Sequence record: PQ471516.1
Length of the DNA: 64,000 nucleotides
Source: Escherichia phage Turkey5
Reading direction: 5' to 3' (one strand)
A program made the translations under genes and the position numbers. Shown here piece by piece: positions 12,895-13,301 of the stretch. Under the pieces are notes generated by a model that was not told the origin of the DNA, did not search any database, and saw only the letters and a list, made by a program, of their open reading frames with translations. The stretch's first letter is position 1. The number at the start of each line of letters is the position of its first letter.

Positions 12895-12984
12895 ATGCAC
12901 ATGAATCCGTTTATAGTAGTAATTGCAATCATGATGGCTGTACAGGCCGTGTTAGAATACTTAAGCAAAGCAGGAGTTATCTAA
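12895..12984 (+). CDS. small hydrophobic peptide (29 aa, predicted TM helix)
   Basis: ATG 12895 after cassette, RBS TAGGAAA; MHMNPFIVVIAIMMAVQAVLEYLSKAGVI; first of three translationally coupled small ORFs. Confidence 0.3.
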   Translation: MHMNPFIVVIAIMMAVQAVLEYLSKAGVI

Positions 12985-13155
12985 ATGATCCAGGTAGAAT
13001 TATCAGTACTCAAAGATCTGTTTTATCGGTTAGGCACTACTGGAGAATACCCGAAAGGTGATACCGCTAAACTATACACTGCATTGGATGTATGGCAACG
13101 TAACGAACTGGCTAACGCCTGGCGTAAAGGTAAATCAGAGGGGATTGCAGCATGA
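12985..13155 (+). CDS. hypothetical protein (56 aa)
   Basis: TAA-ATG junction with the previous ORF; RBS-like CAGGAG 9 nt upstream. Confidence 0.4.
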   Translation: MIQVELSVLKDLFYRLGTTGEYPKGDTAKLYTALDVWQRNELANAWRKGKSEGIAA

Positions 13156-13301
13156 AAGAATTCTTATTCGAAGTAGTGTTTAACCGCGTAGGTGGAAACC
13201 AATTAATTCGCTCAAGTGGTCACAATGTTAATCAAGCGTGGACTAACTTAAAACGAATGTACCCGGACGCGATTACATATCGTAACCCGAAAGAAGTTTA
13301 A
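13152..13301 (+). CDS. hypothetical protein (49 aa)
   Basis: ATGA overlap with upstream stop; followed by composite terminator-promoter element. Confidence 0.4.
   Translation: MKEFLFEVVFNRVGGNQLIRSSGHNVNQAWTNLKRMYPDAITYRNPKEV

Follow-up and report, generated by a model that had tools for sequence, protein, structure and literature searches.

A probable 29-codon gene for a hydrophobic peptide, interlocked with a conserved small gene in the terminal repeat of an Asteriusvirus jumbo phage

In the 64,000-nucleotide stretch of Escherichia phage Turkey5 DNA that was analysed (sequence record PQ471516.1; hereafter the window), the ORF at 12895-12984 is very probably a real, translated gene encoding a hydrophobic microprotein. 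This assignment follows from frame-specific conservation, a signature of selection, the presence of SDs, the exact filling of an intergenic gap and coupled junctions. From the comparison of its alleles, we conclude that the gene is under purifying selection at the protein level, while the alignments place its product as a further allele of a microprotein family that has already been deposited as 121Q gp298 and K64-1 gp462. As small phage membrane peptides are a well-known class, the peptide represents an incremental addition: a real but ordinary phage gene. RaK2-like phages nevertheless carry hundreds of early genes without a known role, and a short, dispensable and fast-evolving peptide of 29 codons, interlocked with a gene that occurs throughout the group, would provide a cheap and tractable handle, simple to make synthetically and to express, on a host membrane target of jumbo-phage takeover.

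Locus layout and terminal repeat setting

The peptide gene is the first of a trio of small genes, followed by genes encoding soluble proteins of 56 and 49 aa (p56 and p49, respectively). The original prediction of three ORFs starting at 12895, 12985 and 13152 was verified to the exact coordinates (Table 1), and its two junctions could be read directly in the sequence. The peptide stop codon (TAA, 12982-12984) directly adjoins the p56 start codon, giving the TAA-ATG junction at 12982-12987, while the p56 and p49 genes overlap by ATGA at 13152-13155, with an SD (GAGGGG) preceding the p49 start. As in coupled operons, stop and start codons abut or overlap and the downstream SD lies inside the upstream ORF, an arrangement that is kept in relatives. 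With a promoter cassette at the 5′ side (TTGCAA-16-TATAAT) and a terminator-like hairpin at the 3′ side, the trio forms one predicted transcription unit, and the single promoter cassette that had been proposed is thus right for this genome. The cassette motif AAAGTACTTGCA, when one mismatch is tolerated, occurs in 27 copies in the window (0.65 expected by chance), and 24 of the 27 copies are on the + strand between positions 608 and 19457. The 12857-12875 stem-loop, immediately 3′ of the -10 element, constitutes the stem-loop half of a cassette resembling the PeSL of T4-type phages (see below), for which promoter and terminator activity is predicted. The conserved element located 3′ of the terminator has no Rfam match and displays no covariation.

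Table 1. Coordinates of the features of the trio locus and of two further hydrophobic peptides in the window
Feature	Position	Strand	Remarks
Promoter cassette, early-type	12810..12850	+	A-tract and AAAGTACTTGCA; consensus match, putative activity
-35 element, TTGCAA	12817-12822	+	Consensus; 16-nt spacer to -10
-10 element, TATAAT	12839-12844	+	Consensus
Overlapping 72-aa ORF	12843-13061	+	Start codon lies within the cassette ('MFYMKGR', an artefact seen repeatedly); not conserved
5′ stem-loop, GGGGAGAA-TAG-TTCTCCCC	12857-12875	+	Present in MFE and centroid folds; stable
SD of the peptide gene, AGGAA	12882-12886	+	8 nt 5′ of the ATG at 12895
29-aa hydrophobic peptide gene, allele A, MHMNPFIVVIAIMMAVQAVLEYLSKAGVI	12895-12984	+	ORF read
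SD of the 56-aa gene, AGGAG	12972-12976	+	In the last peptide codons, 8 nt before 12985
p56 gene (56 aa, soluble), phrog_10572	12985-13155	+	Profile HMM
p49 gene (49 aa, soluble), phrog_37188	13152-13301	+	Profile HMM
Terminator-like hairpin, 12 pairs and T-run	13314-13341	+	Ends the unit; predicted
Second promoter-like site, -35 TTGACT	13321-13349	+	-35 inside the loop and 3′ arm of the terminator hairpin
29-aa peptide, MKTLAYYSSALVGALIAALLVTYLFFMVI	9335-9424	+	Hydrophobic segment C-terminal
58-aa protein with two hydrophobic segments, 121Q gp430	58707-58883	+	Conserved, about 35 records

Sequence comparison identifies the window as DNA of a jumbo coliphage of the genus Asteriusvirus (121Q/PBECO4-like). 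The region 12400-13700 is matched at 85-92% identity by 42 deposited phage genomes, all of which belong to 121Q/PBECO4/phAPEC6-type jumbo myoviruses of Escherichia and Salmonella in this genus. A T5-like early region, suggested by the repeated promoters, is ruled out by this level of identity. Relatives with known physical ends place the trio locus within a direct terminal repeat of ~21 kb. In fEgEco12, a repeat of 20,993 bp was confirmed by restriction digestion and the p56 homolog is located within it, at 13.2 kb, while terminal repeats of 20,668 bp and 22,456 bp have been reported for Sharanji and CBB, respectively. The locus is present twice in the records that hold both repeat copies. In CBB, RpoD-like promoters with UP-like elements are found among short ORFs and extend into the terminal repeat, and promoters of this type have been predicted, by prediction only, to mark early host-takeover genes. 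Literature searches on RaK2-like enterobacterial phages yielded no transcriptome, Ribo-seq or infected-cell proteome. The sigma70-like cassettes in the direct terminal repeat support an early-type nature of the trio region, in line with the early-region setting first proposed.

Alleles of the peptide and evidence for a translated gene

Five diverged alleles of the peptide share one slot, between a gp297-like gene and p56. Allele A, MHMNPFIVVIAI(M/I)MAVQAVL(E/V)YLSKAGVI, is found in the window and in phage A4, while allele B, MQMNPMI(V/I)VLAVLMIIHAIVEVL(T/N)QSGVI(Q/K), is shared by some 20 records of Asteriusvirus. The Klebsiella RaK2-type phages RaK2, KP13-7 and K64-1 encode allele R, MYMPIIIPLAVLLIAAVICEQYHLLGM, while allele M, MYSPMCWVMAVLLILTVVCEHYHLLGM, is encoded by a metagenome contig (L026) and allele L, MYKPFIVILAACLIAASVQDGSLQQYWNEITYHLNRTP, by two Logan contigs (L030 and L031). 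An ORF of 27-38 aa could be read in the slot of the window, A4, 121Q, PBECO4, Sharanji, slurp01, JP4, RaK2, KP13-7, L026 and L030/L031. All five alleles have an SD at a spacing of 5-8 nt before the ATG, and the distance from the peptide stop to the p56 start ranges from -4 to +3 nt among them. The exact sequence of allele A is absent from a collection of 15 billion proteins, and a near copy (93% identity) exists solely in phage A4, where it has not been annotated. Allele B shares 52% identity with the window peptide and is alike in length and layout. Composition-preserving shuffles gave p=0.0002 for A against B and p=0.0006-0.0046 for A or B against R, M or L, with values of 0.013-0.044 for the unrelated TisB control. 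Cross-genus homology of the peptide is weakly indicated by synteny together with a weak sequence pattern, the signal of which surpasses that of the TisB control by a modest margin. The peptide loci were located through p56 searches, which entails an ascertainment bias; a tblastn search with the RaK2 allele as query, which is short or of low complexity, returned no match, not even to itself.

The peptide has no counterpart in about one-third of the Asteriusvirus genomes and is absent from all Mimasvirus and Eneladusvirus genomes examined. Since about one-third of its close relatives do without it, the peptide is dispensable. Its gene has been deposited as a 'hypothetical protein' in 121Q (gp298), vB_EcoM_G17 (G17_00022) and K64-1 (gp462) and has also been called in JP4 and Sharanji, while it remains uncalled in phAPEC6, PBECO4, slurp01, A4, RaK2 and KP13-7. 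Conserved microprotein genes are systematically overlooked when RaK2-like jumbo phages are annotated, as with the 12895 and 9335 peptides, and read-through of the cassettes yields false N-terminal extensions.

The small size of the ORF raises the question of whether it is a non-gene in an AT-rich spacer that is hydrophobic by accident. The AT-rich window contains 33 hydrophobic ATG-initiated ORFs of 20-59 aa, 20 on the + strand and 13 on the - strand, and a chance origin would also fit the dispensability of the peptide and its omission by many depositors (phAPEC6, PBECO4, slurp01, A4 and RaK2). Sixteen of the 20 ORFs on the + strand lie out of frame within longer ORFs. The remaining four occupy intergenic gaps, and comprise the ORFs at 12895, 9335 and 58707 and a 20-aa ORF (5100-5162) that is not preceded by an SD. 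Of the ORFs that fill a gap, measure at least 15 aa and have an ATG plus an SD or coupled start, none besides those at 12895, 9335 and 58707 exceeds a hydrophobicity of 2.0 in a 15-residue window. A chance ORF is highly improbable in view of the cross-genus conservation specific to this frame, the signature of selection, the SDs, the exact gap-filling and the coupled junctions.

The frame of the peptide is the only one that is open in all the genomes compared. It had been proposed that the gene would be refuted if its hydrophobicity were the by-product of an out-of-frame overlap with a longer real gene, and this check failed to refute it: both candidate genes, the 72-aa ORF (Table 1) and an antisense 71-aa ORF, are not conserved and are missing from the relatives, even from A4. 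Alleles A and B share 63% DNA identity, with a pS of 0.66, a pN of 0.29 and a dN/dS of about 0.22, a ratio that is noisy because the allele alignments are very short, while the corresponding pS and pN for R against M are 0.85 and 0.26. The replacements between alleles are few and mostly among I, V, L and M, and synonymous sites are saturated. Under simulated random divergence of equal size, the ORF stayed open and hydrophobic in just 4.4% and 2.6% of cases.

Two further ORFs, at 9335-9424 and 58707-58883, had been presented as comparable short hydrophobic peptides. Both exist and are hydrophobic, but they share no sequence with the 12895 peptide. The 9335-9424 gene is coupled on both sides (ATGA and TAA|ATG) between genes encoding 50-aa (phrog_7119) and 47-aa (phrog_29913) proteins, with the terminator element of the trio recurring 3′ of it. 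Its product barely varies among 121Q, A4 and Sharanji, yet is unannotated there, and has been called in phAPEC6 (gp520c) and others; the calculated insertion dG is robust (-3.4 kcal/mol, Hessa scale). The ORF at 58707-58883 requires correction, in that its 58-aa product has two hydrophobic segments and is annotated in 121Q as gp430; the gene is part of a densely packed operon that lies beyond the cassette region. Paralogy of the three peptides is rejected, as there is no sequence similarity among them and the layout of the 9335 peptide is the opposite of that at 12895. By their sequences, the 9335-9424 and 58707-58883 ORFs are conserved genes that are unrelated to the 12895 peptide and analogous only.

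Neighbouring genes and mosaic ancestry

Both downstream proteins match their families over the full length (p56 to phrog_10572, E = 3.2e-28; p49 to phrog_37188, E = 1.8e-32). Orthologs of p56 were retrieved from 61 records, across Asteriusvirus, Alcyoneusvirus, Mimasvirus, Eneladusvirus and metagenomes, and this distribution characterizes p56 as conserved across all genera of RaK2-like jumbo phages. A scan of IMG/VR for p56 returned just 121Q itself. The protein is predicted to fold as a three-helix bundle (pLDDT of 87 in the best model and 60-67 in the other four), and a Foldseek search of the PDB gave no match to the model (best E = 1.1). By contrast with p56, p49 is restricted to Asteriusvirus and Alcyoneusvirus. 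Gene order in RaK2 runs from p49-like through gp297-like and the peptide to p56, and with its p49 homolog upstream the trio is specific to Asteriusvirus. The view of the trio as a fixed unit must therefore be abandoned, all the more as 121Q and PBECO4 have no cassette before the peptide. The recurrent unit is gp297-like, peptide and p56.

The relationship with p56 allows two alternative readings of the peptide. It could tether p56 at the membrane or regulate it there, with the coupling serving to match their synthesis. The peptide is found only immediately 5′ of p56 in the five alleles, whereas p49 has moved, and the p56 SD is embedded in the 3′ end of the peptide gene, both of which would be expected of such a partner. 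This adjacency may, however, reflect the interlocked SD alone, and is biased by the fact that the loci were found via p56. Furthermore, p56 occurs without the peptide in many phages and is hence independent of it. The peptide-less loci are those of UE-S1, Turkey3, EJP2, GAP32, CBB, fHe-Yen9-04, Serratia BF, Erwinia phage(s) and several metagenome contigs. The alleles also recombine independently, with the window combining an A4-type peptide and a 121Q-type p56, and no fused peptide-p56 protein was found. A 77-aa candidate for such a fusion (P0005) was ruled out as a cassette read-through artefact. We consider a role as partner or anchor of p56 to be quite unlikely.

More doubtful still is a purely cis-acting mini-ORF, the translation of which would serve to load ribosomes onto the p56 start or to unfold it, and the peptide product of which would be functionless. 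The narrow stop-to-start distance in every allele, the use of the C-terminal codons as the p56 SD and the weak constraint on the sequence beyond its hydrophobicity are what such an uORF would produce. It does not predict, however, the low pN against a saturated pS or the retention of a hydrophobic helix in five alleles. In addition, p56 has its own SD, and a cassette without uORF precedes p56 in one-third of the relatives. The predicted mRNA fold leaves the p56 start unsequestered, and this fold, together with the occurrence of p56 without the peptide in relatives, argues against a strict dependence of p56 translation on that of the peptide.

Three arrangements can be distinguished in otherwise collinear DNA: the cassette and peptide together (window and A4), the peptide without the cassette (121Q, PBECO4 and RaK2) and the cassette without the peptide (UE-S1 and Turkey3). 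The best-matching relative switches at each module boundary of the window. The gp297-like gene is closest to that of UE-S1 and Turkey3 (98%), the cassette to that of Turkey3 (95%), the peptide to that of A4 (93%, the sole full-length match) and p56 to that of 121Q (93-98%), while p49 is equidistant from all relatives (81-86%). Judged from these sequences, PeSL-like cassettes form a recombination mosaic at this locus.

In the promoter-early stem-loop (PeSL) cassettes of T4-type phages, a sigma70-like promoter preceded by an AT-rich tract is paired with a stem-loop of G/C type (Arbiol et al. 2010, PMC2839356). These cassettes sit between small non-essential ORFs, where they mediate modular shuffling (PMC2839356; Comeau et al. 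2014, PMC4122927). The cassettes described here follow the same order, from the stop of the upstream gene in an AT-rich tract to a sigma70-like promoter, a G-run/C-run stem-loop, and the SD and start of the next gene. They are likewise dense among small non-essential ORFs, and the ends of indels and replacements coincide with them. They differ in occurring in RaK2-like jumbo phages, in their consensus (AAAGTACTTGCA...TGTATAAT) and in their location in a direct terminal repeat.

Membrane fit, possible roles and comparison with known systems

The peptide has a GRAVY of 1.47 and a best 17-residue Kyte-Doolittle window of 2.28, a hydrophobicity comparable to that of TisB and KdpF. In the window allele, MHMNP is followed by a hydrophobic core of 15-16 residues (F6-L20) and the tail EYLSKAGVI, and the alleles have in common a short uncharged N-terminus (M-x-M-(N)-P), a 15-16-residue core, usually ended by Glu, and a short tail. 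A polar residue is found in the middle of the core (Q17 in A, H17 in B, T in M and S in L), as would be expected for helix-helix packing. The codons of the tail motif, (A/S)GVI or LLGM, double as the p56 SD (AGGAG or AGGA), and the conservation of the tail is thus doubly constrained and partly explained by this SD. The apparent insertion dG of the 19-mer, calculated on the Hessa scale, is +2.2 kcal/mol for the window peptide, -0.3 for B, -0.1 for R and +4.2 for L, with -2.8, -2.9 and +2.0 for the controls KdpF, AcrZ and TisB, respectively. Association of the peptide with the membrane is likely. As the core counts just ~15-16 residues, a full membrane span by allele A is plausible but marginal, such that the hydrophobic character of the proposed single-TM peptide was borne out and its TM assignment is a marginal call. 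No Pfam or PHROG family was matched by the peptide at E <= 0.1, and the Pfam scan of all small proteins tested gave sub-threshold noise only.

These properties can be combined into a tentative model. Host sigma70 RNA polymerase would generate a short mRNA from the PeSL-like early cassette in the terminal repeat, of which the 29-residue peptide would be the first cistron, translated from its own SD. Ribosomes finishing the peptide would stop directly on the p56 start, with the p56 SD lying within the last peptide codons, and translation of p49 would follow that of p56 via the ATGA overlap. Once made, the peptide may form one short helix within the inner membrane of E. coli, where it would pack against a larger host membrane protein and alter the activity of the latter early in infection. 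It would represent a dispensable accessory for host interaction rather than a core function. By analogy with bacterial microproteins, this mode of action, through packing on a host membrane protein, is the favoured reading, though a tentative one. It is considerably less likely that the peptide founds a new class of early effectors, in which a microprotein of <30 aa docks on a specific host inner-membrane complex, possibly together with p56, and reprograms it or blocks superinfection. Candidate docking targets would include a transporter, a respiratory or cell-division component or a DNA-entry route, and if such a docking effector were true, the rapid turnover of alleles and the presence/absence pattern would reflect an arms race with host targets.

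Alternatively, the peptide could oligomerise in the inner membrane and dissipate the PMF or leak ions, contributing to host shut-off in the manner of the type I toxins TisB, ZorO and Hok or of a minimal holin. Type I toxin peptides include TisB and ZorO, both of 29 aa, Hok, Ibs and Ldr. The phage peptide resembles them in its length, its N-terminal hydrophobic helix, and its Kyte-Doolittle and insertion-energy values, and is very near to TisB and ZorO in size, layout and hydrophobicity. Outside its own family, the peptide furthermore scores best against TisB in the shuffles (p 0.013-0.044), the polar residue in mid-helix could line a pore, and toxicity is affordable for a lytic phage. Permeabilisation is nonetheless unlikely. 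The peptide has very few charged residues in comparison with TisB, and it is the first cistron of an operon, whereas the toxins are stand-alone, repressed loci. Type I toxins are typically repressed at translation, whereas the SD of the peptide is strong and accessible, and there is no conserved antisense promoter or RNA. An antisense promoter-like site in p56 (13098 to 13071) arises from conserved WQ codons and scores 8-10/12 irrespective of whether the peptide is present, by which a type I toxin architecture is rejected, and no Rfam match for an antisense RNA was obtained at the locus. The small proteins encoded directly beside the peptide, as far as scanned, have no Pfam match, lysis families included, and an early collapse of the PMF would presumably be harmful to a jumbo phage with a long cycle.

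Among phage proteins, T4 Imm and HK97 gp15 are small membrane proteins for exclusion or injection control, and proteins of the Imm/Sp/gp15 type are 80-100 aa or longer with a defined periplasmic or multi-TM architecture. The phage peptide has no sequence or family match to T4 Imm or Sp (Pfam and PHROG, E <= 0.1), the latter being a superinfection-exclusion protein (PMC7677548). The role first proposed for such peptides, as host-membrane effectors or as injection or exclusion factors, is a conjecture for this one. With the Imm/Sp/gp15 type the peptide would share, by prediction, early expression, small size, an envelope location and non-essentiality. The nearest phage counterpart by family, 121Q gp298, differs from the window peptide in its transcriptional context, with no cassette before gp298 and the window peptide placed behind a cassette of its own.

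The packing model draws on a bacterial class. KdpF (29 aa), AcrZ, MgtS, MgrB, PmrR and CydX are inner-membrane microproteins of <50 aa that modulate larger membrane proteins. The phage peptide shows no sequence similarity to KdpF (shuffle p 0.15-0.84), and it differs from the KdpF/AcrZ/MgtS class in having a shorter core and in being phage-encoded and, by prediction, early. It resembles this class in its size, in its single hydrophobic helix with short polar ends, in the weak constraint on its sequence beyond hydrophobicity and in being, like these microproteins, often missed by annotation.

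Cassette repeats and the genome end

The early-promoter cassette, made up of AAAGTACTTGCA ... TGTATAAT and a G-run/C-run hairpin, occurs in 24 copies on the + strand between positions 608 and 19457, and these copies are restricted to the first ~19.5 kb of the window. In relatives, a direct terminal repeat of ~21 kb corresponds to this cassette-bearing stretch, so the window probably begins near the left physical end of the genome. A perfect 80-bp tandem duplication (20194-20353; 2.0 copies, 100% match), giving two near-identical 24-aa mini-ORFs (20230-20304 and 20310-20384), is also found near the expected end of the terminal repeat.

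Within the cassette, ATGTTTTACATGAAGGGG generates spurious ORF starts ('MFYMKGR...'). Among publicly deposited proteins, the 77-aa form of the 56-aa protein from TH47 (P0005) carries a false N-terminal extension derived by reading through the cassette, and the UE-S1 CDS UES1_257 (91 aa; 1395-1670 of UE-S1 locus L003) has probably been extended in the same manner.

A composite element preceding the cassettes

A composite element is likewise repeated in the window, comprising, in order, an A-tract, a terminator-like GC hairpin with T-run, which also contains a TTGACT -35 box, a TATTAT -10 box and a strongly conserved core (CTAGCCCAYAGGGTGCAYAA.TGTA.CTA), followed by the next early cassette. The element had no match in Rfam, and no covariation was detected when it was looked for. 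It is, furthermore, retained at 76-80% DNA identity in RaK2, K64-1, Munch and EJP2, where it is unannotated. The core could serve to bind a protein or could give rise to a short transcript.

Coordinates of composite elements, cassette-derived ORF starts and unannotated RaK2 ORFs
Feature	Coordinates	Strand	Sequence
Composite element, copy	9560-9715		window
Composite element, copy	13303-13465		window
Composite element, copy	16608-16765		window
Composite element, copy	18870-19030		window
Composite element, variant	11225-11400		window
Additional core	48-63	-	window
Additional core	263-278	-	window
Additional core	2518-2533	-	window
ORF with spurious start	12843-13061		window
Site of spurious start	9135-9185		window
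Homolog of the 49-aa protein	235-381		RaK2 locus L011
27-aa hydrophobic peptide	714-797		RaK2 locus L011
35-aa ORF, hydrophobic segment C-terminal	1489-1596		RaK2 locus L011

The peptide locus and its relatives

Segment-wise comparison of window 12597-13445 against A4, 121Q, PBECO4, UE-S1 and Turkey3 showed successive best matches to UE-S1/Turkey3 (98%), Turkey3 (95%), A4 (93%) and 121Q (93-98%). With the nearest relative switching at nearly all gene and cassette boundaries, this region is a fine-scale mosaic of ~100-200 bp modules.

The locus of a distant metagenome relative (Ga0308167_1001005, 396-871) encodes a tandem pair of paralogs of the 56-aa protein (69 and 56 aa) and lacks a hydrophobic mini-ORF. 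Three small ORFs lack annotation in the RaK2 record (locus L011; JQ513383.1, 237830-239594), and an annotated CDS of KP13-7 (locus positions 1521-1628) is placed similarly to the 35-aa RaK2 ORF.
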